DNA from: a virus | Lineage: Duplodnaviria; Caudoviricetes | IMG/VR virus record: IMGVR_UViG_3300034106_001917 | Span: 1 to 59,073 of that record | Length of the DNA stretch: 59,073 nucleotides | Direction: 5' to 3' (one strand) | In this document: positions 5,119 to 48,205 of the stretch, one piece after another | Numbering within the stretch: the first letter of the stretch is position 1 | How the letters are laid out: every line of letters starts with the position of its first letter | The notes under the pieces: model-generated | What the model was told of the DNA's origin: nothing | The model's database searches: none | What the model saw: only the letters and a program-made list of their open reading frames with translations | Made by a program: the position numbers and the translations under genes

Positions 5119-5119
5119 T

Positions 5120-6591: not shown

Positions 6592-6605
6592 ATTGGAGTT
6601 ATAGT

Positions 6606-10415: not shown

Positions 10416-11218
10416 TAGATAAACTTCTTGAAAAGATCATACAAGAAAAAGTTCACGACAAAGAGGTCGCTGTTTTACTGTCTGGTGGTGCTGATTCATT
10501 GTCAGTTGCTCTTGCTGCACATAGGTTAGGATATGATGTACATGCTTATTCATTTCATCTAAAAGACTTACCGACTTATGATGCCAGTAAAGCGGAAGAT
10601 TCTTCAAGCAAGATGGGTTGGAAGTTTACTAAAGTAATTGTTCCAGTAGATAATCTTGTAGAAGATTTTCACACATTAAGAAAAAAGTTTGAGTGTGTAA
10701 AGAAAACACAGTATGAATGTACGTTTCCTTTTCTGTATATTTTTCCACAGATAAAAGAGAAAAATATTCTTTCAGGTTTTGCTGCTGATGGACACTATGG
10801 TGTTTCGAAAAAAGCATGTATACATTTTAAGCAGCCTAAAGAATTGTTCGATCAGTTTCGTTCCAGTTATCTAAGTGATCCTCCAGGTTTAAGACAACAA
10901 TTGGCACTAAGCAAATACTATAATAAAGAGTATATAACACCATATACGGATCAAAGAGTGATTGATTACTTTCATCAGTTTGATTGGTTTCAGGTTAATC
11001 AACCTTATCAGAAGCATCATGTAGTGGAAGCGTTTACCGAATTTAAAACAATAGGTAAACCTAAACATCATATCAATCTTCAATTAGGCTCTGGTATTGA
11101 CAAGGCATTTGAAAGCCTGCTAGAATGTAATGAAATAAATTACAAAAGACGAAATCGAATGTTAGACGTTTATAGAGATTGGAAAGATCGTGGCGAAATA
11201 CGAACACTATTTGATTGA
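10412..11218 (+). CDS. Asparagine-synthetase-like (PP-loop) ATP-dependent amide ligase, no glutaminase domain
   Basis: LSGGADS PP-loop; SGFAADGHYG resembles AsnB SGEGADELFG; TPYTDQRV resembles VPFLD; LQLGSG. Confidence 0.75.
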   Translation: MIDKLLEKIIQEKVHDKEVAVLLSGGADSLSVALAAHRLGYDVHAYSFHLKDLPTYDASKAEDSSSKMGWKFTKVIVPVDNLVEDFHTLRKKFECVKKTQYECTFPFLYIFPQIKEKNILSGFAADGHYGVSKKACIHFKQPKELFDQFRSSYLSDPPGLRQQLALSKYYNKEYITPYTDQRVIDYFHQFDWFQVNQPYQKHHVVEAFTEFKTIGKPKHHINLQLGSGIDKAFESLLECNEINYKRRNRMLDVYRDWKDRGEIRTLFD

Positions 11219-12428: not shown

Positions 12429-13105
12429 CTAAGTTTACGTTTGCACAAAGAGAAGAAGGCTTTGACAATCACATAGAACATTCTATTCGTGGTTACACAA
12501 ATCTTTGGAATGATGTGTTGAAGTATTCTGAATACTTTGTTGAAGATGATACAAATGTTGTTGACATTGGTTGCTCTACAGGTAAGTTGCTTAAGGCAAT
12601 GATCGACCAAAACACTTTTGCACCACGTGCCAACTATGTTGGTATTGAAGTAGAAGAAGATTTTTTTGACACATATGATGCTGATGAAAAGCAATTTCAA
12701 TATTTGTCTTATCATCGTGGAGATGTTCGTGACTTTAAGTTTGAAAACTGTAGTTTGATAACATCAATTTTTACCTTACAGTTCATACAAGAAAAAGAAA
12801 GAACCGCAATCATCAAACAAATTTATGATGGCTTGAATCCTGGTGGTGCTTTTATCTTTGCTGAAAAAACAATTGCAGAATGTTCTAAGATACAAGACAT
12901 AAGAACGTTTACCTACTACGATTACAAACGTGAACACTTTACCTCAGATGACATACTCAATAAAGAAAAACAATTACGTCACATGATGAAGTTGAATACC
13001 CGAAAAGAACTCATCAATAAATGTGGCACGGCAGGGTTTTCGTTTGATCGTATCGATTCCTTCTGGCAAAACCATAGCTTTACCGCATTTGTTGCCATAA
13101 AGTAA
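12425..13105 (+). CDS. cmoA: CmoA-like carboxy-S-adenosylmethionine synthase
   Basis: FDNHIEHSIRGY resembles CmoA FPDMIQRSVPGY; also DIGCSTG, FTLQFI, IYDGLNPGGAFIFAEK. Confidence 0.8.
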   Translation: MTKFTFAQREEGFDNHIEHSIRGYTNLWNDVLKYSEYFVEDDTNVVDIGCSTGKLLKAMIDQNTFAPRANYVGIEVEEDFFDTYDADEKQFQYLSYHRGDVRDFKFENCSLITSIFTLQFIQEKERTAIIKQIYDGLNPGGAFIFAEKTIAECSKIQDIRTFTYYDYKREHFTSDDILNKEKQLRHMMKLNTRKELINKCGTAGFSFDRIDSFWQNHSFTAFVAIK

Positions 13106-31188: not shown

Positions 31189-32253
31189 ATGGCTTTATCC
31201 ACAGAACAATATTTAAAAATAGGTGAATTTTTTAATTCTATTCTAAAGTCATACAACTATCAAGTTGCACCTCTTGCTCCATCTGGCAAACCGGGCAAGA
31301 TCGTAAAAACTGTACGAGAGTATAGATTGCAACTAATTGATAAAAATAAAGACACATCTGCAAAATTGGTTGACGACTTAGGAAAACTATTAAGATCAGC
31401 ATCTAAAGATATAAGTTCAATACAGTATAATCAAATTTCACCAAACAGTTCAAAATTTCCAAGTTATACTTTTAAGTATGATGGGCAGGGTTTTGATTTA
31501 ATAATTGGAAGAGGTGCAAACAAAGGTGAAAATTTTGAGACAAATACTGTAACTGGATTAGCAAAAGCGTTTGCGACAAGTAAAACCTCTAGTGACTATA
31601 GCAGTGTTATTCAGCAATTAAATGAATCGAATAAAGATTTTGCTTCGGTTGAAATCAAATCTGTAAGCCAAAGAAAAGGTTCAACAAAAAAAGAAGGCGT
31701 GCCAATTGAGAAGTTGGGTGCAATTATTGGAGATATTGTTTTAACAGATACGACAAACAATAACTGGTTTATTTCTTTAAAAGATGTAAACGGAGATACG
31801 TTTAGTTCTTATTCAGGTGCAGCATCCCTTTTTAATGCAACAGGTGAATTGCAACCAAAATCTGCGGGAGCAGAATTTCTAAATGCTTTTGGTGTAGATT
31901 TGAATAAAATTCAAGAAGGTTTTGACATAAGAAACAAGAAAAAAGCGTTAAGAAAAAAAATTAAAGTTGAGAAGGCTAATCCGACAGAAATAAAAAAAAT
32001 CTTTGAACGAGCCTGGGGTATGAATTATTTTTATGTAAGGAAACAAACTCAAGGATGGAAAGTATTTTGGTTGGATAGAAAAAAATTAAATGAATTGACA
32101 AGCAACATTCAAGTTACTGATATTAGATATCCCAATCCCAAATCTAAACAAATAACAATTTATTGTGGAAATAGATTTCAAAGTTATGTTATTGAATTGA
32201 GAAACTCAAAAGCCGGTGAATACCCTAACGACACAAAGTTCAAAGTAAAATGA
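31189..32253 (+). CDS. Hypothetical protein with a possible PD-(D/E)XK-like nuclease core
   Basis: GENFE...GDIVL...FISLK spacing; Lys-rich and AT-rich; SD GGGAG. Confidence 0.55.
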   Translation: MALSTEQYLKIGEFFNSILKSYNYQVAPLAPSGKPGKIVKTVREYRLQLIDKNKDTSAKLVDDLGKLLRSASKDISSIQYNQISPNSSKFPSYTFKYDGQGFDLIIGRGANKGENFETNTVTGLAKAFATSKTSSDYSSVIQQLNESNKDFASVEIKSVSQRKGSTKKEGVPIEKLGAIIGDIVLTDTTNNNWFISLKDVNGDTFSSYSGAASLFNATGELQPKSAGAEFLNAFGVDLNKIQEGFDIRNKKKALRKKIKVEKANPTEIKKIFERAWGMNYFYVRKQTQGWKVFWLDRKKLNELTSNIQVTDIRYPNPKSKQITIYCGNRFQSYVIELRNSKAGEYPNDTKFKVK

Positions 32254-33473
32254 AATTCATGGATTATATAAAAGAGAGTAAAGAAGGCAAGAATGTTCAC
32301 TTAGAACATCTTGAAGATAACGTATTAAATGGTGGTGTTTCAGGTGCCCGTGAGTCAATAGATTTTCTTCGTTCACTACGCAATATGCTTGCTGGTCATA
32401 CGGGTTCGAAAATAAATGTGACTACAAAGTGGGATGGCGCACCCGCTATCTTTGCTGGCACAAATCCAGAAAACGGTAAATTTTTTGTTGGTACAAAATC
32501 AGTGTTTGCAAAAAATGCAAAATTGAATTATACTGATGAAGATATAGATGCAAATCATCCGGGTGAAGGTTTAAACCAAAAACTAAAACTTGCACTTGCA
32601 TTCTTACCTAAGTTAGGCATCAAGGGTGTATTGCAAGGTGACATGATGTTTAGTAAAGGTGACATCAAGAAAGAAACAATTGCTGGTGAAGAATATATTA
32701 TTTTTCAACCAAACACAATTGTATATGCTGTGCCAATAAAATCAAAACTAGCACAGACAATGTTGGCTGCACAAATTGGTGTCGTGTTTCATACATCGTA
32801 TTCTGGTAAAACATTAGAGACAATGAAGGCATCATACAACATTGACATTGGACATTTGAAGCCAACGAAAGATGTTTGGTTTCGTGATGCTTCGTTTACT
32901 GATGCGTCAGGCTCAGTTACATTTACTGAAGAAGAGACAGCAGCAATTACATCTATTCTTTCAAATGCAGGCAGAGTCTTCAATTCAATACCCGCATTGA
33001 CATTGAATCGTATTGCTGCATCGGATGTTTTTCTTACACAAATCAAAACATTCAATAATACAAAAGTTCGTGAAGGTAAAAAGATTGCTGACACCAGAAT
33101 TCATACACAAGAGTTGATAAACTGGGTTGAAGCAAAACTGAATAAAGAAATTCTAGCAGCAAAGAAAGAAGATACAAAACAAAAACGTATCAAAGAAAAA
33201 AATGAAGTCATGCGTTTTTACCGTTCAAATGCAATTCAATTGAAACAAGCATTCGATTTGATGAACCTTATTGTTGATGCCAAGTTAATGATCATTCGTA
33301 AGTTAGAAACCATCAAAAGCATTGGCACATTTGTACGCACAGATGATGGTTTCCGTATTACAGCACCAGAAGGTTTTGTTGCAGTAGATCATCTTGGCAA
33401 AGCATTGAAACTGGTAGATAGATTAGAATTCAGTAGACAAAATTTCAACGCACAGAAAGCATGGGATAAGTAA
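32250..33473 (+). CDS. Conserved T4-like phage protein with ligase-like KxDG motif (DUF6267-like)
   Basis: HLEHLED, TTKWDGAPA, LQGDMMF, PEGFV, KLVDRLEFS; N-terminus MKFMDYIKE. Confidence 0.7.
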   Translation: MKFMDYIKESKEGKNVHLEHLEDNVLNGGVSGARESIDFLRSLRNMLAGHTGSKINVTTKWDGAPAIFAGTNPENGKFFVGTKSVFAKNAKLNYTDEDIDANHPGEGLNQKLKLALAFLPKLGIKGVLQGDMMFSKGDIKKETIAGEEYIIFQPNTIVYAVPIKSKLAQTMLAAQIGVVFHTSYSGKTLETMKASYNIDIGHLKPTKDVWFRDASFTDASGSVTFTEEETAAITSILSNAGRVFNSIPALTLNRIAASDVFLTQIKTFNNTKVREGKKIADTRIHTQELINWVEAKLNKEILAAKKEDTKQKRIKEKNEVMRFYRSNAIQLKQAFDLMNLIVDAKLMIIRKLETIKSIGTFVRTDDGFRITAPEGFVAVDHLGKALKLVDRLEFSRQNFNAQKAWDK

Positions 33474-33745
33474 TGGAATACGATATCAATAAAATTTTAG
33501 CAGAATATGCAGACGATGACTTTGGCTTCAGTGCTGTAGATGAAGTTGAATATCAAGCAGTCATTGCGGAGAAAGATGAAACTGTTGAAGAATACAAAGC
33601 AAGACTTCAGCAAGTAGAAAAAATTATTATGCCATTTCTGACAAATCTGTACAAGACCGCAAGTCAACCATACATCCACTGGCCAAATCGTGGACCAATC
33701 ATTGAGAAGCAAATGCAAAAAGTATTGAAACTGACGAGGGGATAA
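33473..33745 (+). CDS. Hypothetical protein
   Basis: DDFGFSAV...YIHWPNR; coupled by TAATG on both sides. Confidence 0.7.
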
Positions 33746-34068
33746 TGATTACTATATCTGATTCTGCCGTAAAGAAAATCAAAACAATTATTGCTGAAGA
33801 AGATCCAGACTTGAAGTTGAGGGTTTTCGTTCAAGGTGGTGGTTGTTCTGGCTTTCAGTACGGTTTTACATTAGAAGAATTGCCAGCAGCAGATGATGAC
33901 TTTACATTTGAAAGAGATGGTGTTGGAGTTGTCATAGATAGTATGAGTATGCAATATATGAATGAAGCCGTGATTGATTATAAAGAAGATTTGATGGGTG
34001 CTTCATTTACAATCAAAAATCCAAACGTAACTGCAACTTGTGGTTGTGGTTCATCATTCACGATATGA
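33745..34068 (+). CDS. A-type Fe-S cluster carrier (ErpA/IscA/HesB family)
   Basis: [29 protein letters not shown]. Confidence 0.95.
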
Positions 34069-34250
34069 AAACATTCAAAGATTACCTCAAGACAAACAAA
34101 GATAGCAGGCAAGAGTTTGTGTCGAAGGCTGGTGCTGGTGAGTGGGGTAGACCAGAAACGACCGCTAAATATCTTGATGACACGCCCGGTCAAAGTCAAC
34201 AACAATATAAAAAATACACAGGAAGCTGGGCAACAACAGACATAAAATAA
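34065..34250 (+). CDS. Small protein with internal-protein-like N-terminus
   Basis: MKTFKDYLK...GAGEWG....YLDDTPGQ; ATGA overlap. Confidence 0.65.
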
Positions 34251-34265
34251 ATTATTGGAGATATT

Positions 34266-35108
34266 ATGAAAGATGTGATTGTAGGCTGTGCCAACAACTA
34301 TGATTGGTCCAAACTAAAATATTGGGTCAATTCTATCAATCAATCAGGCTTTGAAGGTGACAAAGTTCTGATTCTCATGAACTGTGATAAAGATACCGTA
34401 CAAAAAGTATCTAACGCAGGCTTCTCAATCATTGCATTCAATCAAGACACTGAAGGTAATTTGAAGTATCAATCGAATCTTATGGTTCACGTTGAACGTT
34501 TTGTTCACATTTACAAATTACTCAAAAGCAATGATTATCGGTATGTAATTACTACTGACGTAAGAGATGTTATCTTTCAAAAGAATCCTGTAGAATGGTT
34601 AGAAGAGAATCTTTCAGCACAAGAAGATTTGGTATTCTCTTCTGAGAGTATGAAATATAAAGATGAGCCATGGGGTCGTGAAAATATCACACAATGTTAT
34701 GGTCAAGGCATCTATGATGATTTCAAGAACAACACGATCTTCAATGTGGGTGTTCTTGCTGGTCGAGGTCATGCAATGAGAGACCTGGTGCTACAGTTAT
34801 TTTTGAACTGTATCAACAGACCAATTCCAATTGTAGATCAGGCAGTATTCAACGTAATGGTATCAAGACATCCATATGTGAAAACATCAATGTACATGAA
34901 ATCCGAAGAAGGCTGGGCATGTCAATTAGGCACAACTGCCGATCCAAGTAAGATCGAACAATTCAGACCACATCTTTTAGAACCATCACCGAAATTAGAA
35001 GGTGATAAGGTTGTAACTTCAACAGGAATAGAGTATACTATTGTACATCAGTATGATCGTGTGCCAGAATGGCGTAAAGTGATTGAGGCAAAATATGACG
35101 ACAAATAG
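34266..35108 (+). CDS. Glycosyltransferase-like protein (GT-A)
   Basis: TDVRDVIFQ.NP, NVGV, DQAVFN, VHQYDR. Confidence 0.65.
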   Translation: MKDVIVGCANNYDWSKLKYWVNSINQSGFEGDKVLILMNCDKDTVQKVSNAGFSIIAFNQDTEGNLKYQSNLMVHVERFVHIYKLLKSNDYRYVITTDVRDVIFQKNPVEWLEENLSAQEDLVFSSESMKYKDEPWGRENITQCYGQGIYDDFKNNTIFNVGVLAGRGHAMRDLVLQLFLNCINRPIPIVDQAVFNVMVSRHPYVKTSMYMKSEEGWACQLGTTADPSKIEQFRPHLLEPSPKLEGDKVVTSTGIEYTIVHQYDRVPEWRKVIEAKYDDK

Positions 35109-35775
35109 AATCAAAGAACTATTTTGGGAATTAGAAAAACCATCTACTAAATGGTCAGGCTACTTTGATGTTTATGAAAGACATCTAAAGAAGTTTGTGG
35201 GTAAAGCACCACGCATACTTGAAATTGGTGTACTTGGTGGCGGCTCAATTGAAATGTGGCTGAAATACTTTGGACCAGATACATCAGTTGTTGCCATTGA
35301 CATCAACGAAGAATGTTTGAAATATGAGTATACTGGTGATGTCAAGATTGTGATGGGTGATCAAGGCGACCCAGAGTTTTGGGATGAGTTTCTCAAAACA
35401 CAAAACAAGTTTGACATTGTAATTGATGATGGCTCACATGTAATGAATCATCAAATCACTACACTCAACAAAGTTTTTCCACACATCAAAGAGGGTGGTG
35501 TATACATTTGTGAAGACACTCACACAAGTTATTGGCCACAGCCATGGGGTGGTGTATTTCGTGGTGCTGGCACATTCACCGAACACTGTAAGCGGGCAAC
35601 TGATATAGTCAATCAGCAGCACTTTCAAGGCTCACCAATTTCACAAGATGCACTAGATGCATATCACAATCTGTATTCTGTAGCATTCTACAACAGTATG
35701 GTTGTGATGGAAAAAGAACAACTCAAGCCATTTGGCATCACAGACAACAAAGCAAACGTGGGGCGTGAACTATGA
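35095..35775 (+). CDS. Class I SAM-dependent methyltransferase (sugar O-methyltransferase-like)
   Basis: KW..YF..YERH, LEIGVLGGGS, GDQ, IDDGSH, GGVYICED. Confidence 0.85.
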   Translation: MTTNRIKELFWELEKPSTKWSGYFDVYERHLKKFVGKAPRILEIGVLGGGSIEMWLKYFGPDTSVVAIDINEECLKYEYTGDVKIVMGDQGDPEFWDEFLKTQNKFDIVIDDGSHVMNHQITTLNKVFPHIKEGGVYICEDTHTSYWPQPWGGVFRGAGTFTEHCKRATDIVNQQHFQGSPISQDALDAYHNLYSVAFYNSMVVMEKEQLKPFGITDNKANVGREL

Positions 35776-36485
35776 GAATAGCACTCTGTATCTCTGGCCA
35801 ACCAAGAATGTGGGAAAAAGGCCATGCATATCATTACGAAAATATTATCAAAGATAATGATGTAACTGTCTTTCTGCATTCATGGGAAATGCCCGCTGAA
35901 GAGATGCAAAAGATTTCTTCAAAGTATAATGCATACAGTTTCAAAACATCACCAAATCCTACAGTTGATTTGTCAAAGTATACAAACACACCACCACCAT
36001 CACCAAATTGGAAAGTCAAAGATGGTCGTATGTCAACATATGCTCAGTTGTATGCAATCAGAGAATGCATGAAAACAAAGTATGAATATGAAAAATACTT
36101 TGAAATGAAGTTTGATTGGGTCATTCGTTCACGATTCGACTTTGCTATTAACACTCGTATACCATTTGAAGAACTAGACAATAGTAAGTTGTACATACCA
36201 AACTGTCGCATGACACCAGAACGTGACTTTGGTAATGATCAGTTTGCGTTCTCATCATCCGAAAATATGGACAAGTATGCTGATGCTTACAATCACATTG
36301 ATGAGTTCTACAATTCTGGTGTGCAATACATGATGGAAGATTTCATGAGTGCCAACTGGAAGAGACACAATCTTGTTGGTGAAAATCTTGTATATTGCGA
36401 TGTCAATCATCCGTTTTCACCAGGAGAATATAACAGCACATGGCATTCTCTTTTGAGAAATGATATGGAAGAATGGCTCAAATGA
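35772..36485 (+). CDS. Glycan-modification/GT-like protein
   Basis: MRIALCISGQPR, FLHSW, IRSRFD, NDQFAF pattern, typical of glycan-island proteins. Confidence 0.55.
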   Translation: MRIALCISGQPRMWEKGHAYHYENIIKDNDVTVFLHSWEMPAEEMQKISSKYNAYSFKTSPNPTVDLSKYTNTPPPSPNWKVKDGRMSTYAQLYAIRECMKTKYEYEKYFEMKFDWVIRSRFDFAINTRIPFEELDNSKLYIPNCRMTPERDFGNDQFAFSSSENMDKYADAYNHIDEFYNSGVQYMMEDFMSANWKRHNLVGENLVYCDVNHPFSPGEYNSTWHSLLRNDMEEWLK

Positions 36486-37204
36486 ATCTGATAATCTGTA
36501 TGGCGGGTTACAACACCCGTTTCCATGACGTTGGCTTTGACATACCAAAATATCTTTTGCCTTGGAATGGCAAAACAATCATATACGATATTTTGAAGAA
36601 TCTTGGTTGGGTCAATCAACTTATTCTTGTGGCCAACAAAAGAGACATTTATTTCAAAGAGCAACTTGTTGAAGCAATCAAGCCATTGGGATGGAACGAA
36701 AGTAATATTCTTTATATCGGTGATACAAAAGGTCAAGCACACACAGCAGCGATTGGAATTGAACAACTGAACAACAAGAACTTACCAACATTTGTACACA
36801 ATGCAGATACAATCATCAAGGGTCGTCGTATAGATTTTATTGCCGATGACTTGACCGCAAAGCATGATGCATACATTGATGTGTTTGTGGGTAATTCACC
36901 AAAGTATTCTTATGTTCGTGCATTTGAAAACACGGTAATTGAAATTGTGGAAAAGAAACAAATCTCACCTTATGCATCATCGGGCTTCTATGGTTTTCTA
37001 ACTGGTCATCTTTACCTAGAATATTATAACAAGTTAGCCGAAAAAGATGGTGAATTGTATATTGCAGATGTGATACAAAGTATGATACAATCTAATAAAC
37101 AAGTATTCATGAATCCTCTTGGCAGCAATCAAGAAACGATTGTGCTAGGCAGTCCTCAAGAATACGGTATTGAGATAGCAAGGCAAACACTAGGTGCAAA
37201 ATGA
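36482..37204 (+). CDS. Sugar-phosphate nucleotidyltransferase (NTP transferase family)
   Basis: MAGYNTRF...PKYLL, TKGQAHT, NAD, EKKQIS, ELYIA, LGSP. Confidence 0.82.
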   Translation: MNLIICMAGYNTRFHDVGFDIPKYLLPWNGKTIIYDILKNLGWVNQLILVANKRDIYFKEQLVEAIKPLGWNESNILYIGDTKGQAHTAAIGIEQLNNKNLPTFVHNADTIIKGRRIDFIADDLTAKHDAYIDVFVGNSPKYSYVRAFENTVIEIVEKKQISPYASSGFYGFLTGHLYLEYYNKLAEKDGELYIADVIQSMIQSNKQVFMNPLGSNQETIVLGSPQEYGIEIARQTLGAK

Positions 37205-38154
37205 CAACTATACCATTGAAAGGTGGCTCACTCAGTAAAACTTACTGGCTACCAGATGAGAAGATTGTTCGCAAAGAAATCTCACGTATAAAAAATCGTG
37301 AATATGGTTTCATGCGTTGGTATTCTCAGTTGAAGAAGTTACAAGAATATAACACACTGTATCCTGGTTTGTTTCCTAAAGTTGTAAATGTAGATTCTAC
37401 TAGTGTTGAAGCATGGTTTGATTTGGAATATCTTGAAGGCTTTCGTGATATCAAAAGCATTCTTAGTAAAGACACACTGAGTGAAGAACAAATCTTCAGA
37501 ATGAGTCAAGCAGTCTGGAGAGGACTGAATACACTTCACTCAATCAGAAAAGAACCTATTGCTGGCACACCAAAACTTTATTTTGTTGAAGAGATACAAC
37601 AGAAGATTGAAGATGCCATCAAAATAAAAGAGTTTGAAGATTTCTTCTATTATGGCACTTACCATTTCAATGGTGAAGTTGTTACAGGTATAGGTGGTTA
37701 TCTTCATGTTCTGAAAGAATACTTTGCAGAATTAGAAAATGATGATGAGTGTAACATTCACGGTAATCCTACACTAGAAAATATCATGTATTCATTTAAT
37801 GAAGATCGTGTTGTCTTCATTGACTTATATGATGAGAGTATGTGGAACACCAAGTATCTTGACTATGCACAAGTGTTACAATGTTCTCGTAGTCACTATG
37901 GCTTCATCAACGATCATGATGTTCGTGTAAAAGGAATTGATGTGTCTATTTCTCATGGTGGTGTGGATCACTTTGAGACATTCAACAAACACTTTATCTC
38001 TGAGTTACCAGAAGATAAAATGAAACTCATAGATATACTAGAAGCATCACAGTTCATTCGTATGCTTCCGTTCAAACTGCTTGCTGGTGATATTGATAAA
38101 GCAAAATATTTTTATGTTCATGCATGTAAACTGTTTAGTAAGGCGATGAAATGA
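37201..38154 (+). CDS. Aminoglycoside/choline-kinase-like phosphotransferase
   Basis: GGSLS Gly loop, VRK, LEYLEG, HGNPTLENI, FID. Confidence 0.7.
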   Translation: MTTIPLKGGSLSKTYWLPDEKIVRKEISRIKNREYGFMRWYSQLKKLQEYNTLYPGLFPKVVNVDSTSVEAWFDLEYLEGFRDIKSILSKDTLSEEQIFRMSQAVWRGLNTLHSIRKEPIAGTPKLYFVEEIQQKIEDAIKIKEFEDFFYYGTYHFNGEVVTGIGGYLHVLKEYFAELENDDECNIHGNPTLENIMYSFNEDRVVFIDLYDESMWNTKYLDYAQVLQCSRSHYGFINDHDVRVKGIDVSISHGGVDHFETFNKHFISELPEDKMKLIDILEASQFIRMLPFKLLAGDIDKAKYFYVHACKLFSKAMK

Positions 38155-39287
38155 GTTTAGACTTTATGATGGATTATGACAAGTTCAAACGAACTTGGTC
38201 AGTCAAAACAGAACTACCAGTAGAATTCAAACTTACATACTCTGCTGACATCTTCAGCCCAAGTAATCAAGATATTGTAAACATCACGAACAGTGATCGT
38301 AGAATTATTGTTATTGATTCTGAAGTGCATGATCTATACAAAGATAGCATTGCAGCATACTTTGGCGCTGTCAAGTTGAGTTGCAAAATACTTTGTGTAG
38401 ACTGCAAAGAAGAAAATAAAAACTGGAAGAATGTAGATCGTATCTTAGACTTTTTTGAACAGAATGGAGTGTTACGCCGTGAACCGATTATCGCAATTGG
38501 CGGGGGTGTCCTGCTTGACATTGTTGGCTTTGCTTGCAGCATTTATCGTCGTGGAATTCCATATATCAAAATCCCCACAACACTTCTGGCGATTGTTGAT
38601 GCATCAGTCGGCTCAAAAGTAGGTGTCAATCATTTAGGTAGACGCAATCGTATTGGTGCGTACTATCCACCATTGGCGACATATATTGATAAGAAGTTTA
38701 TTCGCACACAGAGTGAACGTGAGATTGTCAATGGCATTGCAGAGATATTCAAACTTGCAGTCATCAAATCACCAGAACTATTTCATCTGCTAGAAGAAAA
38801 TGCAGAGATATTGATTGATGAAAAGTTTCAGTATGGTGCAGTGCCAGTTCGTGTAATCAATCTTGCTATCACAGATATGATTGCAGAACTAGGACCAAAC
38901 CTGTGGGAAAAACGATTAGATCGTTGTGTAGATTTTGGTCACACATTTAGTCCTGTGATTGAGATGGCTAACATACCAGAGTTGTTACATGGTGAAGCAG
39001 TAGCGTTAGACTGCTTGTATAGTTCGTGTATTTCATTCATTCGTGGTTACATTGACACAGTTCAATTGAAACGAATCTTTGGTGTTGCAAAGAGATTGAA
39101 ACTAAAAACATTTCATAAAGACTTCACAAACATGAAGTATTTGTTAGAAAGTCTGCGTGATGCAACCAAACATCGTAATGGCGATCAGTATGCACCACTA
39201 CCTATTGCAATTGGCAACTACAAGATTGTCAATGATATCACAGAAGATGAAATGAAATTGGCTATTGATCTTTTTGAGGAGATATGA
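38151..39287 (+). CDS. Sedoheptulose-7-phosphate cyclase, EEVS-type (DHQS superfamily)
   Basis: GGGVLLDIVGF, PTTLLAIVDASVG.K, AEIFK, ELGPNLWE...RCVDFGHTFSP, LLHGEAV. Confidence 0.85.
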   Translation: MSLDFMMDYDKFKRTWSVKTELPVEFKLTYSADIFSPSNQDIVNITNSDRRIIVIDSEVHDLYKDSIAAYFGAVKLSCKILCVDCKEENKNWKNVDRILDFFEQNGVLRREPIIAIGGGVLLDIVGFACSIYRRGIPYIKIPTTLLAIVDASVGSKVGVNHLGRRNRIGAYYPPLATYIDKKFIRTQSEREIVNGIAEIFKLAVIKSPELFHLLEENAEILIDEKFQYGAVPVRVINLAITDMIAELGPNLWEKRLDRCVDFGHTFSPVIEMANIPELLHGEAVALDCLYSSCISFIRGYIDTVQLKRIFGVAKRLKLKTFHKDFTNMKYLLESLRDATKHRNGDQYAPLPIAIGNYKIVNDITEDEMKLAIDLFEEI

Positions 39288-39958
39288 TGCGTAAGGTTGC
39301 TGTAGTCACTGGTTGTAGTTATGGTCTTGGTTATGATATAGCAGGTAGATTAATTGATGAGGGCTATTTTGTTTATGGTCTATCACGTTCACAACCACCT
39401 ATGGACTTGTATTCATATCCCGATACATTTGAATGGGTTGAATGCGACATAACAAAGTCAAAACAAGTTGAAGATGCATTTAAAACAATTGGCACATACA
39501 TTGATGTGCTTGTAAACAATGCTGGTGTGTATGAGTGGGGATTGTTCAAAGACGAACTTTCATTTGAATCGATAGACAAGATTATTGATTTGAATGTCAA
39601 AGGCACGATGTATGTAACACTAAAAGCACTCAAGTTACTGAATAAAGGTAGCGACATTTTCTTCATCAATTCTGTTGCTGGTCTAAAAGAGATGGAATGG
39701 GAAGCAGTTTACTCAGCATCTAAACATGCCATCACAGCATTTGCTGGTGCATTGGGTGCAGAATTACACACACAGATGAATGAGATTCGTGTCACAAGCA
39801 TTCATCCTGGTGGTATACAAACACCTATGCAAAAAGATCACCCAGATAGAAAGAAGTTTTTAGAACCAAAAGAAGTAAGTGACACGATTGTTCATGTCAT
39901 TAAATCAAAAGCAACTTACAAAACAATCAAACTATTTTCGGATGTAGAATGGCACTAA
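39284..39958 (+). CDS. Short-chain dehydrogenase/reductase
   Basis: TGCSYGLG, NNAG, YSASK, HPG. Confidence 0.9.
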   Translation: MMRKVAVVTGCSYGLGYDIAGRLIDEGYFVYGLSRSQPPMDLYSYPDTFEWVECDITKSKQVEDAFKTIGTYIDVLVNNAGVYEWGLFKDELSFESIDKIIDLNVKGTMYVTLKALKLLNKGSDIFFINSVAGLKEMEWEAVYSASKHAITAFAGALGAELHTQMNEIRVTSIHPGGIQTPMQKDHPDRKKFLEPKEVSDTIVHVIKSKATYKTIKLFSDVEWH

Positions 39959-40656
39959 TACCCTCACAACAGATGTTCATTGTAACATCTGCACTCAACC
40001 CAAATATGGGCATACTCAATCGCCAAGAAAGACTTGAACAAACGATTGAAGGTCTTGTGTCACTCAGACGAAAATGTCCAGACGCCATTGTTATTTTGGC
40101 TGATGGTTCACCAGAGCCAGTAGAAAGAGAAAAATATGACAGTATGAGTCAATTTGTCAATCTGATTGTTGATTTTTCTGGTGATAGGGAAATAGCACAA
40201 TTTGCGTCAATTGGCCGTAAAAGTGAAGCAGAGAATGTGTTGATGTTAAAAGTGATGATGCTTTTAAAACAATCAGCGAACATGATGCGATTGATGCATT
40301 CTGTTAGTAGAATTTATAAATTTTCAGCACGGACCGTATTTCTTGATGATTTTGATATAACTGAACATGATCACTTTGGAAAATATGTGTTCAAAAAAAG
40401 AATGCCAACTTGGATGGGCGGTGAAGTTGCTGAAACATTTACTGATTTACTGATTACTCGTTTTTTCTCATTTTGTCCGAGTCTGATTGATGATTATTCA
40501 ATTGTTTGTAGAAGAAATGTTGATGTAATTCAAAATACTAGAGTTGACACTGAACATGCTCATTTCTTCAACATTGAGTCTGACCGTCTTGTAGAACTTG
40601 ATAAAATACACTGTCAAGGTGTCATGGCCAGCACAGGAGCAACGGAAATCTACTAA
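39949..40656 (+). CDS. Hypothetical GT-like protein
   Basis: IVTSAL...R.EQT...LADGS...KS.AE...YKFSAR pattern, within the glycan island. Confidence 0.55.
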   Translation: MALIPSQQMFIVTSALNPNMGILNRQERLEQTIEGLVSLRRKCPDAIVILADGSPEPVEREKYDSMSQFVNLIVDFSGDREIAQFASIGRKSEAENVLMLKVMMLLKQSANMMRLMHSVSRIYKFSARTVFLDDFDITEHDHFGKYVFKKRMPTWMGGEVAETFTDLLITRFFSFCPSLIDDYSIVCRRNVDVIQNTRVDTEHAHFFNIESDRLVELDKIHCQGVMASTGATEIY

Positions 40657-40666
40657 ATACTAAATA
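40653..40666 (+). promoter_or_regulatory. Tandem late-promoter-like motifs
   Basis: CTAAATA-CTAAATA about 30 nt upstream of the 40699 ATG. Confidence 0.55.
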
Positions 40667-40698
40667 ACAGAAACAACTGCCGCAGAGGTAGAGGGATT

Positions 40699-43215
40699 AT
40701 GAAATTTAGAGATTTTCTACGTGAACAGAAAGAGAAACATGCCGTCCTAGCATTTGGCCGCATGAATCCGATTACAAACGGTCACGAAAAACTAGTCAAT
40801 AAAGTCAAAGAGATTGCCGACAAAGTTGGTGGCTCACATCACATCGTTCTGTCACACTCACAGGACGCTAAGAAAAATCCCCTTACAGCAGATCAAAAAG
40901 TCAAACACGCTAAACGTGCATTTCCTGGCACGAACTTCACAGCAGCATCCAAAGATAAACCAACATTCTTTGATCATGCAGAAGCACTTCACAAGAAAGG
41001 TGTAACTCATCTTCATATGGTTGGTGGCTCTGACCGCACAGAAGAATATCACAAACTGTTACACAAGTACAATGGCACACATGAGGGTGCCCGTTTCAAT
41101 TTCAAATCAATCAAAGTACACTCAGCAGGTGAACGTGATCCTGATGCTGAAGGTGTAACTGGTATCTCTGCTTCAAAGATGCGTGAACATGCAAAGAGTG
41201 GCGATCTTGATTCTTTCAAGAAAGGCGCACCATCGTCAATGTCTCATGCCCATGTCAAACAAATGTTCAATGATGTACGTAAAGGTATGAGACTACACGA
41301 AGAAATCATTCGTGAGGGTGTTCACGACAAAGGTATTTTCAAAGCAGTGTTTCTTGGCGGCGGTCCAGGCTCAGGTAAAGATTATGTGTTGAGTAAAACA
41401 CTAGACGGTCATGGGCTGACAGAAATCAATTCAGACAAGGCACTTGAGTATTTGATGGACAAAGAAGGTCTTGATAAGAGAATGCCTGAAGATGAAGAAG
41501 CACAGCGTAATGCTGTTCGTAAACGTGCAAAGAATGTTACAGAGTTGCGTCAACGTTTAGCATTACATGGTCGCAATGGATTGATCATCAATGGTACAGG
41601 TGATGATCCAGAAAAATATGCCAAGATCAAAGACATGCTTGAGAAGTTGGGCTATGAAACTTCGATGATCATGGTCAATACTGCTGATGAAGTATCAAAA
41701 GAAAGAAACATCGAACGTGGTCAACGTGGTGGTCGTACAGTACCAGAAGACATTCGTAAAGAGAAATGGGATTCAGTACAAGCGGCACGACCAATGTTTG
41801 GCAAACTGTTTCGTGACAACTATGTTGAGTTTGATAACTCTGAAGATTTGCGTACAGCCGCACCAGAAGTTGTAGAAGCAAAGACAAAAGAACTAGACGG
41901 CATTTTCAAAAACATACAAAAGTTTGTAGGTAAGCCACCAAAGAATGATTCGGCAAAAGGCTGGATTGCCACAGAGTTGGGTAAGAAAGATACGGCACCA
42001 ATTCGTACTGACATGAAGCCACATAAAGATGCTGGCACACACGATGACATGAATACCATGGGTCTAGAGTATTATGGTTTTGGTCGTTATGGTAAAGATG
42101 GTAAAGTTACACATCGTTCAGTACATGGTAGTCTAGTACCAGTAGAAAAGATTGCAAAGACTGTTGAAACTCATCAAAACAAAATGGCTAAGATGAATGA
42201 AGCCGTTACAGTTTCAGTCACAGGCGATACAGTAGAAGAAGTTACACGTACACTTCGTTTACTCAAGTCGGATGAAGAAGACATGGTAGAAGAAGAGGAA
42301 GTAAATACAATGTCTGATCCTGGTGCATACAATCTACTGATGCTTGGCAAAAGCATGATTAAAGAAGATTTGCGTCAATGGTTTGATCCTAAACATCCCA
42401 AGGGTGGTTGGAAGCGTATCAATAGTAAAGGTGAAGCAATTGGTCCATGTGCCAGAGAACCGGGTGAAGCAAAGCCTAAGTGCATGTCAAATGAAAAGAG
42501 AGCAATGCTATCAAAGAAAGAACGTGCTTCTGCTGTAAAAGCAAAGCGCCGCCATGATCCAAATCCAGAACGCAAAGGCGCACCAATTAATGTGTCGAGT
42601 TTTGGTAAAGGTAAGATTAGTGAAGAAACAGAGAAGAAACAAAAGTTGTTGACAGATAAAAATGGTAAAACACGATTGTTTTATATTCGTGGTTCAGCGG
42701 CAAAAGAAGCACACCAGAAAGGTGGCACAGTAGCAAAAGTAGGCAATAGATATGTTGTCAAACTAAAAGAGGACTTACATGAAATACATTCACCTGATAA
42801 TTCTGCGATTGAAGCAATTTATGGACAGAATAGTTCCACCCCATCAGCCAAAGAACTTGGAAAAGTTAGAACCGGTACTGGAAGAAAAGATCGACCAGCC
42901 CTTGACAAGCCCGTTGCCGAAGGAAGAAGAACAATCAGTCTTGCCAGCATCAAAGAAAACTTCCAGAAAAAAGTCGAAGAATCAATCGACAAAGGCATAG
43001 AACCTGGTATTTCAATGGCGGGTGCTGGTGAATCTCCTGCTAGAGACATGGGTGAGAAGTTGAGCAAGAAAGGCAAAGCAACACAAGTTGTACCAAAGAA
43101 CATTAGTGAACTTACTGGCGATACAACCACAGCATCAATCGGTGATCAAAAAGAAGATGAATTGAAGAAAAAAGGTATCTCACTTATAACATTTAAAAAG
43201 AGAAACTACATATGA
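40699..43215 (+). CDS. Multidomain putative internal virion protein: HIGH-family nucleotidyltransferase, P-loop (zeta-toxin/Pnk-like) kinase and small C-terminal modules
   Basis: FGRMNPITNGH/GSDR/ISASKMR; GGPGSGKD/INSD/IINGTG/RN..R..R; N-terminus MKFRDFLRE. Confidence 0.75.
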   Translation: MKFRDFLREQKEKHAVLAFGRMNPITNGHEKLVNKVKEIADKVGGSHHIVLSHSQDAKKNPLTADQKVKHAKRAFPGTNFTAASKDKPTFFDHAEALHKKGVTHLHMVGGSDRTEEYHKLLHKYNGTHEGARFNFKSIKVHSAGERDPDAEGVTGISASKMREHAKSGDLDSFKKGAPSSMSHAHVKQMFNDVRKGMRLHEEIIREGVHDKGIFKAVFLGGGPGSGKDYVLSKTLDGHGLTEINSDKALEYLMDKEGLDKRMPEDEEAQRNAVRKRAKNVTELRQRLALHGRNGLIINGTGDDPEKYAKIKDMLEKLGYETSMIMVNTADEVSKERNIERGQRGGRTVPEDIRKEKWDSVQAARPMFGKLFRDNYVEFDNSEDLRTAAPEVVEAKTKELDGIFKNIQKFVGKPPKNDSAKGWIATELGKKDTAPIRTDMKPHKDAGTHDDMNTMGLEYYGFGRYGKDGKVTHRSVHGSLVPVEKIAKTVETHQNKMAKMNEAVTVSVTGDTVEEVTRTLRLLKSDEEDMVEEEEVNTMSDPGAYNLLMLGKSMIKEDLRQWFDPKHPKGGWKRINSKGEAIGPCAREPGEAKPKCMSNEKRAMLSKKERASAVKAKRRHDPNPERKGAPINVSSFGKGKISEETEKKQKLLTDKNGKTRLFYIRGSAAKEAHQKGGTVAKVGNRYVVKLKEDLHEIHSPDNSAIEAIYGQNSSTPSAKELGKVRTGTGRKDRPALDKPVAEGRRTISLASIKENFQKKVEESIDKGIEPGISMAGAGESPARDMGEKLSKKGKATQVVPKNISELTGDTTTASIGDQKEDELKKKGISLITFKKRNYI

Positions 43216-46417: not shown

Positions 46418-48205
46418 ATGTCAGTCGCCGATAAGTTACATCAACGACAAATGGCTCTGCGTAAGAAGTCGGGACTACCACATCCCGACTATTACAAAGA
46501 GTTGGGTCATTCTTACGGTATTTCTGATGACAAAGAGAGACTTGCAAAGCAGGCAGAAATCAAAAAGAAATACAAAGTTGAAGAAGTTGAACAACTTGAT
46601 GAGATGCCAGAGTCGAGCATGAAGACACGTGATGTTCATGCACATCTTCGTAAATCAGGTTGGACATTGAAGCGTACAGGTGGTGGACATGATGTATATG
46701 CTCATCCAAAGTCAAAAGAACACATTGCTGTTCCAAGACATAAACAACTCAAAGCACCATTGATTCGTGGTATTATGAAAGCATCAAGAGTCTCCGAAGA
46801 GACAGAGATTGATGAACAATTAGAAAAGAAAGGACGATTCGTGTCTGGACCAGTTAAAAAACCTTTTAAGTCTTCTACGATTGTTTCACCAATTAAAGAG
46901 GCAAAAGACCCACGTGAGTATGATTATGAGGGCGACATGGCAATGTCACAACTTCGTTCACTAGTTTTCAATGCAGAAGACTTGATTGAAATGATGGATG
47001 AAAATACAAATCTTCCTGAGTGGGTACAATCAAAGATTACACTTGCTGAAGATTATATCTCTACAGCAGCAAACTATCTGCGTGGCGAATTGACCGAAGC
47101 AGCAAATCCCGCACAACAAGCAGCGATTGCAATCAACATGAAGAAAAAAGGTATCAAGCCTAAAAACGAAGAAGTTGAACATCTTGATGAGATTAGTTCT
47201 GATACAGCTAAATCATATCTTGACAAGGTTCGATTTAAGCAGGCAAAAAGAGCAGTAAAGGCAAACATAGGCGCACCAAGAGAAAAGCCATTGGCTGCTG
47301 CTGCTCTTGACAGAACAGCCAAGAGTATGGAACTTGCTCGTAAGCGTGTAAAAGAAGAAGTTGAACTTCAAGAAGGTCGCCCATCACAGCGTCATCCACT
47401 AGAAGGTCACGATTATCACAAGAAATCCAATGAAGCGTTAGTTCATATTGCCAAAGATGCTCATGAAGCAGCAGAAGCAATGAAGAGTCATAATACAACA
47501 GCAGAAAACAAATATCGTGATCAAGCAAATGATTCTGCAACTGTAAGACACTGGAGAAAAAAGAATGGTATGCCTGATTGGTATAAAAAGAAGTATGGGC
47601 ATGTCAACGAAGAATTTGAACTTGATGAGGGTATGGAAGGTGGAACATATGTGCGCCGAGACTTATCAGGTAGACCTATTGCTCCAAAATCAACTCTGTC
47701 ATTCAGAAAATATGCTGTTAAATCTGACGGAACTCAAGGTAAAGAACTTAAAGTTGGTACTTTGACACCATACACAGATAAAGAAAAAAGAGAAAGAGAT
47801 AGTGAAGAGGTACGCTCTGGGCACATTTCGGCAGATAAGTATAAAGAACACATGAAAAAGTATGGTCATCTTTACAAGAAAGAAGAATTTGAGTACCTTG
47901 AAGAGAAGAATGAACCAACCAATCCAGCACTTTGGTCAAAAGCAAAATCATTAGCACGTTCTAAGTTTGATGTATATCCATCAGCATACGCCAACGGTTG
48001 GGCCGCAAAGTGGTACAAGTCAAAAGGTGGTGGTTGGAAGACTGTAAGTGAAGATGTTGATGATCCAAGTGCAGCAGCAAGAACTCTGTCACGCAAGGCT
48101 CAGATTGTTAAAGATGCTGCAAAAGGAAAAAAACAAGAACAAGAACAGGCATCGGATAAGTTTCAAAAAGACCCCGAATTGTCTAGCGATATACAGAAAA
48201 CATAA
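46418..48205 (+). CDS. Modular polyprotein with a HicA-like domain, putative internal head protein
   Basis: aa 68-125 read LRKSGW.LKRTGGGHDVYAHP...IAVPRH...LIRGIMK; repeated EE(V/F)ExLDE linkers. Confidence 0.75.
   Translation: MSVADKLHQRQMALRKKSGLPHPDYYKELGHSYGISDDKERLAKQAEIKKKYKVEEVEQLDEMPESSMKTRDVHAHLRKSGWTLKRTGGGHDVYAHPKSKEHIAVPRHKQLKAPLIRGIMKASRVSEETEIDEQLEKKGRFVSGPVKKPFKSSTIVSPIKEAKDPREYDYEGDMAMSQLRSLVFNAEDLIEMMDENTNLPEWVQSKITLAEDYISTAANYLRGELTEAANPAQQAAIAINMKKKGIKPKNEEVEHLDEISSDTAKSYLDKVRFKQAKRAVKANIGAPREKPLAAAALDRTAKSMELARKRVKEEVELQEGRPSQRHPLEGHDYHKKSNEALVHIAKDAHEAAEAMKSHNTTAENKYRDQANDSATVRHWRKKNGMPDWYKKKYGHVNEEFELDEGMEGGTYVRRDLSGRPIAPKSTLSFRKYAVKSDGTQGKELKVGTLTPYTDKEKRERDSEEVRSGHISADKYKEHMKKYGHLYKKEEFEYLEEKNEPTNPALWSKAKSLARSKFDVYPSAYANGWAAKWYKSKGGGWKTVSEDVDDPSAAARTLSRKAQIVKDAAKGKKQEQEQASDKFQKDPELSSDIQKT
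46580..47905 (+). repeat. Dispersed in-frame linker repeats GAAGAA(G/T)TTGA...(G/C)A(T/A)GA(G/A)
   Basis: Copies at 46580-46605 and 47168-47193 (25/26 identical), with variants at 47354, 47609 and 47882. Confidence 0.7.

Follow-up and report, generated by a model that had tools for sequence, protein, structure and literature searches.

An eight-gene island in a freshwater T4-related phage encodes a putative pathway to an activated C7 cyclitol

A 59,073-nucleotide stretch of DNA from an uncultured virus (IMG/VR record IMGVR_UViG_3300034106_001917, here called the window; CheckV completeness estimate, 32%) carries, at positions 34266 to 40656, an island of eight genes that appears to encode a pathway for making and using an activated carbasugar. 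[quoted passage not shown] We consider it probable that this core yields a phosphorylated or nucleotide-activated C7 cyclitol.

The island encodes a putative cyclitol activation pathway

The island is filled by eight plus-strand open reading frames (ORFs), with neighbors overlapping by 4 to 26 nucleotides (nt). An initial annotation made from the sequence alone had described this overlapping run, and the ORF coordinates and family matches bear the description out. All eight genes are syntenic in 39 close IMG/VR loci at 52 to 100% identity (tblastn), with ORF2 missing from 4 of them; because of this synteny, the eight ORFs are not chance reading frames. The genes are as follows.

34266 to 35108, plus strand: ORF1, 280 amino acids (aa), soluble; possible, weakly supported GT-A-type transferase with an invariant TTDVxD stretch
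35083 to 35775, plus strand: ORF2, 230 aa; predicted SAM-dependent O-methyltransferase of the MycE/TylE sugar type; accessory gene
35772 to 36485, plus strand: ORF3, 237 aa, DUF7796-like; possible GT-A-fold transferase
36473 to 37204, plus strand: ORF4, 243 aa; predicted small sugar-phosphate NT; core gene
37201 to 38154, plus strand: ORF5, 317 aa; protein-kinase-like/APH-like with an atypical HGN loop; core gene, presumed cyclitol kinase
38151 to 39287, plus strand: ORF6, 378 aa; predicted EEVS-type cyclase of sedoheptulose 7-phosphate (S7P), in a distinct "RNR" clade; core gene
39284 to 39958, plus strand: ORF7, 224 aa; classical SDR, presumed cyclitol ketoreductase; core gene
39949 to 40656, plus strand: ORF8, 235 aa, soluble; predicted GT-A fold, nearest to retaining glycosyltransferase (GT) families GT6 and GT8

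In the pathway that we propose, the EEVS-type cyclase would convert host S7P to a C7 keto-cyclitol of the 2-epi-5-epi-valiolone type, and the SDR would then reduce the ring ketone. The resulting cyclitol would be phosphorylated by the kinase-like protein, and the NT would turn the cyclitol phosphate into a nucleoside diphosphate (NDP)-cyclitol. Three soluble GT-A-like proteins would use this NDP-cyclitol, possibly along with ordinary NDP-sugars, on a cytoplasmic acceptor, most likely a phage structural protein before assembly, and the MycE/TylE-like enzyme would tailor the product by O-methylating a (pseudo)sugar hydroxyl. We give the whole scheme, through to transfer onto an acceptor, an even chance, and we propose a virion protein as that acceptor only tentatively. 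We infer the substrate, the product, the order of the steps, the form of the unit transferred (cyclitol or cyclitol phosphate), and the acceptor from the gene content, family assignments, conservation, and linkage observed here. The early steps have a precedent in C7-cyclitol metabolism, for which C1 ketoreduction, 1-phosphorylation by AcbU, and nucleotidylation by AcbR or VldB are described in the available part of PMC9200736. The four core enzymes are small and soluble, and the central claim is thus directly testable in vitro.

ORF6 resembles EEVS and falls in a distinct cyclase clade

ORF6 has the two-domain fold of 3-dehydroquinate synthase (DHQS)-like enzymes (Pfam PF01761 [DHQ_synthase], 123.1 bits; PF24621 [DHQS_C], 68.8 bits). 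[quoted passage not shown] The initial annotation had favored EEVS over DHQS and DDGS on the strength of the motifs ELGPNLWE and VDFGHTFSP, both of which are present in the ORF6 translation, as is RNRIG. HMMER alignments agreed with this choice: ORF6 and ValA (PNLWE, VDFGHSFSP) have PNLWE and VDFGH(T/S)FSP in common, whereas DDGS 5tpr has PNLHE and IAYGHTWSP and DHQS 3okf has LNLGHTFGH. Based on its best match and motifs, we therefore classify ORF6 as a predicted EEVS-type S7P cyclase.

An alternative reading is that ORF6 is an ordinary DHQS that serves host aromatic amino acid synthesis and that its neighbors are unrelated to it. Some source annotations do label close homologs "3-dehydroquinate synthase," and the NCBIfam aroB equivalog model matches ORF6 at 214.6 bits, but this score is under the model's cut-off of 305. 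Since ORF6 is also twice as near to ValA as to the nearest DHQS, reads VDFGH in place of the DHQS motif LNLGH, and is always linked to kinase-like, SDR, and NT genes, we regard this reading as extremely improbable.

A cyclase phylogeny, one of the checks that the initial annotation had called for, was built from 240 sequences: 142 representatives from a search of 1.84 billion proteins, the cyclases of 80 bacterial loci, 17 viral rows, and Salmonella AroB as the outgroup. EEVS-type motifs are carried by nearly all members of this set. In the FastTree phylogeny, every one of the 17 viral cyclases and of the 10 bacterial ones with a linked kinase-like gene joined 12 representatives in a single clade of 39 (SH-like support, 97) that took in none of the 70 other bacterial sequences, most of which are actinomycete. 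In a quick IQ-TREE analysis of 75 rows, 38 of the 39 again formed a clade free of other sequences (SH-aLRT, 96), with representative P0166 falling outside. Built without labeled EVS, DDGS, or EboD sequences, the trees show that these cyclases form a clade of their own among EEVS-motif proteins rather than their position relative to those three types.

The arginine that the initial annotation had noticed in RNRIG, at a position where lysine is usual, proved to be a signature of this phage and core-linked clade, which we call the RNR clade. All 39 members have Arg, whereas the 200 sequences outside have Lys in 179 cases and Arg in 21. The Asp at the position that, by counting in the alignment, we take to be D281 of ValA is likewise present in 39 of 39 members, and the Trp of PNLWE is present in 35 of 39. 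The presumed metal ligands E198, H264, and H280 are invariant in the cyclase alignment. Among the phage genomes in INPHARED, a tblastn search with the cyclase matched 15 records at 25.7 to 30.6% identity, none of them EEVS-like; most of these records are unannotated, and in the annotated ones the match is called aroB or 3-dehydroquinate synthase.

Cyclase, reductase, kinase-like protein, and NT recur as a four-gene core

The initial annotation had also proposed looking for the four core genes elsewhere, and they were found in several phage lineages and beside the cyclase in a minority of bacterial loci. Of the 119 stretches in a viral profile scan, 80 were kept, and 41 more distant loci were analyzed. 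In this set the four core genes adjoin one another. Of the 41 loci, 39 have the kinase-like gene next to the cyclase and 36 have the NT, every miss being a locus that is cut off upstream. A second large group of T4-related phages, with 58 to 68% identity in the cyclase, keeps the order ORF1, ORF3, NT, kinase-like gene, cyclase, SDR, and ORF8, with the methyltransferase relocated or lost. In still other viral lineages (L167, L171, L177, L186, and L190 to L192), the four-gene core alone is kept and its neighbors differ. The NT, kinase-like protein, cyclase, and SDR thus constitute the invariant core.

For bacteria, we surveyed the 80 best cyclase loci on contigs from one genome per species. The kinase-like gene adjoins the cyclase in 10 of them, with four core genes in 7 loci, three in 2, and two in 1. 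The bacteria concerned are a gammaproteobacterial metagenome-assembled genome (MAG), a member of the Magnetovibrionaceae, four Myxococcota, and members of the Desulfobulbaceae, Fibrobacteria, and Holophagaceae, together with a Prochlorococcus single-cell contig. Around the Actinoplanes utahensis cyclase (L106), no ORF5 homolog turned up within a distance of 10 kb. The bacterial four-gene cores are nearly isolated and have no conserved transferase neighbor, although some adjoin polysaccharide-type genes, namely a Wzz chain-length determinant (L053), a GT2 gene (L041), a GT61 gene (L042), or a sulfotransferase gene (L064).

In three bacterial loci (L064, L042, and L067), the SDR is replaced by a protein of another family (F5), which in L064 is an aldo-keto reductase, implying that the reduction step is preserved through non-homologous replacement. 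Natural fusions were also found. The 728-aa protein P0124 joins a kinase-like domain (35% identity, E = 9e-45) to a cyclase, and when ten of the nearest cyclase representatives were scanned against Pfam, five proved to be ROK-kinase::cyclase fusions and one a cyclase::NTP_transferase fusion. Given the linkage of the core in phages and bacteria, the replacement of the reductase, and these fusions, strong comparative evidence assigns the cyclase, reductase, kinase-like protein, and NT to a single pathway, as the initial annotation had supposed when it coupled them.

Two of the bacterial loci merit separate description. In the gammaproteobacterial MAG (L041, positions 8299 to 11810), the core lies between a giant protein of more than 2,200 aa with no Pfam family and the GT2 gene, with citrate synthase nearby. 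The cyclase of this locus nests within the viral cyclase clade (63% identity), which suggests gene transfer between phages and bacteria. On the 10-kb Prochlorococcus single-cell contig (L064, positions 1338 to 8042), which may be cellular or viral, the order is NT, kinase-like gene, cyclase, and aldo-keto reductase, flanked by the sulfotransferase and a TPR protein. The four-gene core therefore looks like a portable module common to phages and diverse bacteria, and it contains both an unusual kinase-like enzyme and an uncharacterized cyclase clade.

Sister phage clusters add further genes beside the core: two for NDP-sugar 4,6-dehydratase/epimerase-type proteins, one for a DegT aminotransferase, one for a 2-oxoglutarate (2OG) oxygenase, and, in L192, one for a carbamoyltransferase. 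In L150, and likewise in L166, the two dehydratase/epimerase-type genes, a DegT/DnrJ aminotransferase gene, and a 2OG-Fe(II) oxygenase gene stand at L150 positions 4483 to 5610, 10470 to 11798, 11977 to 12792, and 13432 to 14214. By analogy, this set of amino-deoxyhexose enzymes recalls the second half of acarviosin. L192 has a RuBisCO-like protein (PF00016, 113 bits) at positions 5940 to 7058, between the NT and the kinase-like gene, and a NodU/CmcH-type carbamoyltransferase at positions 9841 to 11364, after the SDR. Such additions match the behavior of a variable glycan locus.

The core pairs an atypical kinase-like protein with a conventional NT and SDR

The activating enzymes differ in how closely they follow known families. 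ORF4 matches Pfam NTP_transferase (PF00483) at 44.1 bits, against a cut-off of 21.2, and its PDB match is an NDP-sugar pyrophosphorylase (4evw, 1.4e-19). The residues G12, R16, P25-K26, D84, D112, and E160-K161 are invariant across 12 phage and bacterial homologs, and the G...R...PK and EK signatures of sugar-phosphate NTs are present. ORF7 scores 137.8 bits against adh_short and has both the cofactor motif TGxxxGxG (as GCSYGLG at residue 10) and the Ser-Tyr-Lys catalytic residues of a classical SDR (NNAG and S...YSASK, with YSASK at residue 143).

ORF5 is a less straightforward case. Its Pfam APH match (24.4 bits) is barely above the cut-off of 23.2, a single-sequence search of the PDB returned no match, and in a profile search of the PDB its sole resemblance was to the JAK2 JH2 pseudokinase (E = 1e-3), with which it shares HGN. 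The initial annotation had called it a kinase. In favor of that label, it is APH-like and has the ATP- and Mg-binding residues K25 (the beta3 Lys), E34 (the alphaC Glu), N194, and D208, which are invariant in 19 of 19 phage and bacterial homologs. Against it, the catalytic loop reads H187-G-N189-P-T-L-E-N194, in which Asn replaces the catalytic Asp of HxDxxxxN, and this is so in all 19 homologs. We therefore file ORF5 as a predicted kinase-like protein and not as a canonical APH member. Its family could comprise active small-molecule kinases that do without the usual base or enzymes of a different chemistry. A kinase is the most economical role that can be suggested for ORF5, because the cyclase reaction strips the phosphate from its substrate and the NT then requires a phosphorylated one.

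The island adds candidate transferases and a sugar-type methyltransferase

The remaining four genes are candidates for transfer and tailoring. ORF2 scores 28.1 bits for Pfam Methyltransf_24, whose cut-off is 26.3, and matches the methyltransferase family phrog_21658 (2.4e-22); its PDB matches are 3ssm (1e-25, residues 29 to 213) and 8ia9, a demethylmacrocin O-methyltransferase (7.8e-20), which we take to be MycE and TylE, respectively. Enzymes of the MycE/TylE type methylate hydroxyls of sugars that are already on an aglycone. These matches sharpen the O-methyltransferase call of the initial annotation, and ORF2 is probably of the sugar O-methyltransferase type.

The presence of a methyltransferase raises the prospect that the island makes a gadusol-like sunscreen or antioxidant from 2-epi-5-epi-valiolone through the methyltransferase and the SDR. 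The vertebrate pathway, in which EEVS and MT-Ox give gadusol according to the available part of PMC4426668, has the same combination of EEVS, methyltransferase, and oxidoreductase as the island, and the phage comes from lake water. However, the methyltransferase is the least conserved island gene (it is missing from 4 of the 39 close loci and from every one of the 80 bacterial loci, and its position shifts in relatives), and as a homolog of the sugar O-methyltransferases MycE and TylE, ORF2 belongs to a family other than that of the vertebrate enzyme. The kinase-like protein and NT are invariant even though gadusol synthesis would need neither. A gadusol-like product is therefore highly unlikely.

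Of the three ORFs that the initial annotation had called GT-like, ORF8 is by far the clearest case. It belongs to no Pfam, NCBIfam, or PHROG family and has no homolog in INPHARED. Its AlphaFold model is confident (pLDDT, 81; pTM, 0.84), and Foldseek matched the model in the PDB to alpha-1,3-galactosyltransferase, the ABO transferases, BoGT6a, and glycogenin (E values of 1e-6 to 4e-5, probability 1.0, TM score of ~0.5). In BFVD, the best matches were two uncharacterized phage proteins (TM score, 0.8), followed by giant-virus GTs. The model therefore points to a GT-A-fold protein nearest to the retaining GT6 and GT8 families. Candidate acidic motifs for the DxD site that binds metal and nucleotide-sugar in GT-A enzymes are ADGS in ORF8 and TTDVRD in ORF1.

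For ORF3, the Pfam DUF7796 match (24.1 bits) is under the cut-off of 27, and there is a match to phrog_13607. An atlas of related clusters associates its family with viral DUF7796 and "capsular polysaccharide biosynthesis protein" clusters, and it is 24 to 28% identical to cyanomyovirus genes. The structural model is poor (pLDDT, 62), and Foldseek gave no match at an E value of 0.001 or lower. In an exhaustive VIA search with this pLDDT-62 model, the top 50 were mostly GT-A GTs mixed with NTs of the same fold, at middling Z scores of 4.8 to 6.9. The ORF3 family is the commonest companion of the core in distant viral lineages, and paralogs stand beside the core in L171, L186, and L192. A literature search on "DUF7796" found no paper.

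ORF1 has no Pfam or NCBIfam family, and a profile search of the PDB gave no match. The leads are a match to phrog_1579 "glycosyltransferase" (E = 2.6e-6), one viral cluster of the atlas in which 10% of members have PF03407, and a 63%-identical relative in L158 that matches PF25342 (GT_PLOD) below the cut-off (E = 4e-4). ORF1 is conserved in 35 loci. Its sole INPHARED match is Virus Rctr41k (26%), and of its 3,485 protein homologs at an E value of 0.001 or lower, the 120 listed are "hypothetical" proteins of 84 to 98% identity with no Pfam family. Profile comparisons among ORF1, ORF3, and ORF8 revealed no paralogy. The GT-like label of the initial annotation thus stands for ORF8 as a predicted fold and comes down to weak leads for ORF1 and ORF3.

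The donor chemistry and acceptor admit several readings

Several points weigh against the proposed scheme, chief among them the chemistry of the donor. No ROK 7-kinase, epimerase, dehydratase, or phosphatase family was found among the eight ORFs in Pfam or NCBIfam, so the donor would be a saturated carbasugar. A saturated NDP-carbasugar is a poor glycosyl donor, with no oxocarbenium-like or allylic transition state, and the pseudoglycosyltransferases VldE and AcbS have the GT-B fold, in contrast to the GT-A-like phage candidates. The characterized routes, as set out in the available part of PMC9200736, lead to unsaturated GDP-valienol via extra kinase, epimerase, dehydratase, and phosphatase steps, and GDP-valienol is coupled by dedicated pseudoglycosyltransferases. 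The acarbose/validamycin-like route of the initial annotation thus holds for the cyclase, reductase, kinase-like protein, and NT and fails for those extra steps. Its suggestion of (pseudo)glycosyltransferases fared worse: none of ORF1, ORF3, and ORF8 resembles known pseudoglycosyltransferases, and no GT-B family was found among the island ORFs in Pfam, NCBIfam, or PHROG. On the enzyme side, we know of no characterized member of the RNR clade, and its product may differ from the predicted 2-epi-5-epi-valiolone; phosphoryl transfer by ORF5 is not assured, given the Asn at the catalytic Asp position and the likeness to a pseudokinase; and the assignments of ORF1 and ORF3 as GTs are weak. Moreover, homologs of ORF1, ORF2, ORF3, and ORF8 occur in none of the 80 bacterial cyclase loci, so the core does without these particular partners.

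Given that a saturated donor would be a poor one, four outcomes are possible. The cyclase of this clade may make a compound other than 2-epi-5-epi-valiolone; the transferases may move cyclitol phosphate, by analogy with CDP-alcohol systems; the GT-A-like enzymes may use a new mechanism; or the NDP-cyclitol may itself be the end product.

Since none of the eight island proteins has a transmembrane segment, the acceptor would be cytoplasmic. A cytoplasmic protein, e.g., a virion protein, fits best as the acceptor, and a soluble product is the main rival to it. The soluble product would be a small molecule, either the NDP-cyclitol or a methylated pseudo-oligosaccharide, that acts as an inhibitor of a glycosidase or GT, a signal, or a solute in the infected cell. 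Validamycin, acarbose, streptol, and kirkamide are analogues of such a product, and the saturated NDP-carbasugar would by its nature mimic an NDP-sugar while being non-transferable. As noted above, the four-gene cores of bacteria are nearly isolated and lack a conserved transferase beside them, and the dehydratase-like and DegT genes of the sister clusters match the amino-deoxyhexose half of acarviosin in outline. In the available parts of PMC12904256 and PMC9200736, the known EEVS products are all small molecules. On the other hand, the island lacks an exporter or any membrane protein, no pseudoglycosyltransferase homolog was found in it, and some bacterial cores lie within polysaccharide loci (Wzz, GT2, and GT61). 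Three GT-A-like genes and an O-methyltransferase of the post-glycosylation type suit the building of a glycan at least equally well. We therefore rate a soluble product as possible and rather unlikely.

The cyclitol could instead be added at the cytoplasmic face to a host envelope glycan (lipopolysaccharide, capsule, or S-layer glycan), where it would alter the surface of the infected cell and might, for example, block the adsorption of further phages. The bacterial cores beside Wzz (L053), GT2 (L041), GT61 (L042), and sulfotransferase (L064) genes are in keeping with this proposal, as are the cyanophage relatives of ORF3 that bear the depositors' provisional label "capsular polysaccharide biosynthesis protein." Against it, the island has no flippase, polymerase, undecaprenyl phosphate transferase, or transmembrane protein of any kind, and the phage looks like a lytic T4-type phage, in which surface conversion has little precedent. 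The lack of a membrane component argues against classic envelope-glycan assembly; action on lipid-linked intermediates could still occur. We consider an envelope target unlikely, and somewhat more so than a soluble product.

The initial annotation had also listed DNA among the possible acceptors, in the manner of glucose on the hydroxymethylcytosine of T4. The phage is related to T4, the island sits amid replication genes, and the candidate transferases are soluble. However, hydroxymethylase-type genes are lacking: no gene of the thymidylate synthase family, to which the dCMP and dUMP hydroxymethylases belong, was found in the window or in either G001 (a genome of 172,439 bp that has terminal repeats) or G003, the two relatives whose completeness is 90% or more. 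Such a gene was found in one of the five records searched, which is of a different lineage. A DNA target is therefore very improbable.

The pathway idea of the initial annotation is thus largely supported, and its target and transfer chemistry are what we infer. Our most specific proposal goes further, and we put it forward as a conjecture more likely wrong than right: an Arg-type EEVS, a ketoreductase, an Asp-less "HGN" enzyme, and a small NT would form a previously undescribed module that has moved by gene transfer across phages and at least six bacterial phyla and has become fixed in lake phages, in which virus-encoded GT-A-like enzymes and a methyltransferase would decorate virion proteins with a methylated carbocyclic pseudo-sugar or with its phosphate. 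If true, this would be the first virus-made carbasugar glycoconjugate and would imply a new transfer chemistry for GT-A-fold enzymes. The glycosidase-resistant decoration that the initial annotation envisaged is conjectural; if an activated carbasugar is transferred, a new class of glycosidase-resistant glycoconjugates would result, along with enzymes for glycoengineering.

The island resembles the front half of known C7-cyclitol pathways

In outline, and by analogy, the system looks as if the first half of the validamycin and acarbose routes had been joined to a set of viral glycosylation genes. The sequence of EEVS-type cyclase, ketone reductase, kinase, NT, and transfer is the same as that given in the available part of PMC9200736. 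The differences are nevertheless numerous. The phage cyclase is in a clade separate from that of ValA and AcbC and has Arg for Lys; the kinase is protein-kinase-like/APH-like with HGN rather than ROK; the epimerase, dehydratase, and phosphatase are missing; the NT is a 243-aa RmlA-like protein; the transferase candidates are GT-A-like rather than GT-B pseudoglycosyltransferases; and the bearer is a virus, not an actinomycete. With several defining steps lacking, the phage system does not appear to belong to the acarbose/validamycin pathway type.

The ORF5-ORF4 pair has a second likeness, to salvage systems of the AmgK-MurU, LicA-LicC, and NahK types, in which an APH-fold kinase beside an NTP_transferase of ~230 to 240 aa activates a free alcohol or sugar in two steps. 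Unlike in those systems, the phage substrate would be made de novo by the linked cyclase and reductase, and the kinase-like protein lacks the catalytic Asp. If ORF5 and ORF4 behave as LicA and LicC do, what is transferred would be cyclitol phosphate and not the cyclitol itself.

Glycosylation of virions by viruses is itself well known, as with A064R of chlorovirus PBCV-1, which has GT-A and methyltransferase domains, and with the capsid and tail of mycobacteriophages. The island resembles these systems in combining soluble, virus-encoded GT-A enzymes with a sugar O-methyltransferase, and the PBCV-1 capsid GT 2p6w was among the structural matches of ORF3 (Z score, 5.4). Those systems use ordinary NDP-sugars, however, and we know of no viral glycosylation system that makes a carbocyclic sugar. 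C7 cyclitols are familiar as actinomycete drugs (acarbose and validamycin), plant-symbiont metabolites, and animal sunscreens; to our knowledge, they have not been known as virus-made building blocks.

EboD of the ebo cluster offers a further parallel. According to the available part of PMC5133447, it likewise represents an uncharacterized cyclase lineage near EEVS and DDGS, with predicted use of S7P and horizontal spread, but its partner genes, that of a UbiA prenyltransferase among them, are all missing from the phage island. The initial annotation knew of no described phage pathway of this type, and our full-text literature searches found no report of a phage or viral C7-cyclitol pathway; neither phage nor virus is mentioned anywhere in the text of a 2026 cyclitol review (PMC12904256). 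An activated-cyclitol pathway thus appears not to have been described in any virus. If the predicted pathway operates, it would represent a new kind of phage auxiliary metabolism fed by the host pentose phosphate pathway.

The island is fixed in a lineage of freshwater phages

The virus of the window is a phage related to T4. Its family B DNA polymerase is 52% identical to cyanomyovirus counterparts, and the window also encodes UvsX, a gp41-type helicase, a CobS-like ATPase, a phrog_459 peptidase, ribonucleotide reductase, and a virion protein. Every long ORF is on the plus strand, the GC content ranges from 0.34 to 0.41, and there are no tRNA genes in the window. The lineage is an abundant, Kyanoviridae-like freshwater one, in which the island is accessory. 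Neither psbA (Photo_RC) nor transaldolase was found in five related records, so this is unlikely to be a typical cyanomyovirus, and its S7P would have to be supplied by the host.

The island is surrounded by replication genes, with a DUF6267 gene (positions 32250 to 33473) and then a small IscA-like gene on its left and the gene for an 838-aa protein on its right. Judged on one neighboring gene, the closest cultured relative is Pelagibacter phage HTVC008M, the best match for the 838-aa protein. At the equivalent site, HTVC008M has UvsX, a helicase, two hypothetical proteins, and a cytidyltransferase, and the cyclitol genes are absent; relative to this phage, the island is therefore an insertion. 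A megablast search of INPHARED with the island gave no match.

Within the window's own lineage, however, the island is fixed. We anchored 80 loci on the upstream DUF6267 gene (73 to 99% identity), and the 41 of these that reach at least 2.5 kb downstream, and so are informative, all carry island genes. DNA nearly identical to the window was found in 20 sequencing runs from 16 studies, which may include the source sample. Most of these runs are lake-water or freshwater metagenomes, and the rest are labeled viral, aquatic, estuary, or just "metagenome"; no RNA run was among those listed. The predicted pathway is thus fixed in a phage lineage whose DNA occurs in lake and freshwater metagenomes from 16 studies.

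Scans for regulatory sites in positions 33400 to 41000 were at chance level: 29 sigma-70 promoter-like sites were found where 26.5 would be expected, and 4 terminator-like sites, with no plus-strand case, where 3.8 would be expected. The window has two copies of the T4 late-promoter octamer (2.9 expected), neither of them at the island, and the octamer therefore gives no hint of when the island is expressed.

Several neighboring genes were noted in passing. Directly upstream of the island, the small IscA-like gene (positions 33745 to 34068) encodes an Fe-S cluster biosynthesis protein (75.8 bits for PF01521); most close relatives retain it, and the second phage group lacks it. In the 198-nt gap ahead of ORF1, inspection by eye showed a short open frame of ~61 codons (positions 34066 to 34250). 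Farther downstream, a 595-aa ORF (positions 46418 to 48205) has a short match over residues 66 to 124 to phrog_353, which is labeled "toxin." The 838-aa protein (positions 40699 to 43215) has a cytidylyltransferase-like N terminus, a Zeta-toxin/AAA_33-type P-loop kinase domain, and a C-terminal half with no family, and PHROG 455 unites it with the upstream DUF6267 family. Conservation of its N terminus extends to 540 phage records, those of cyanophages and of Pelagibacter phage HTVC008M among them, and the protein appears not to be specific to the island.

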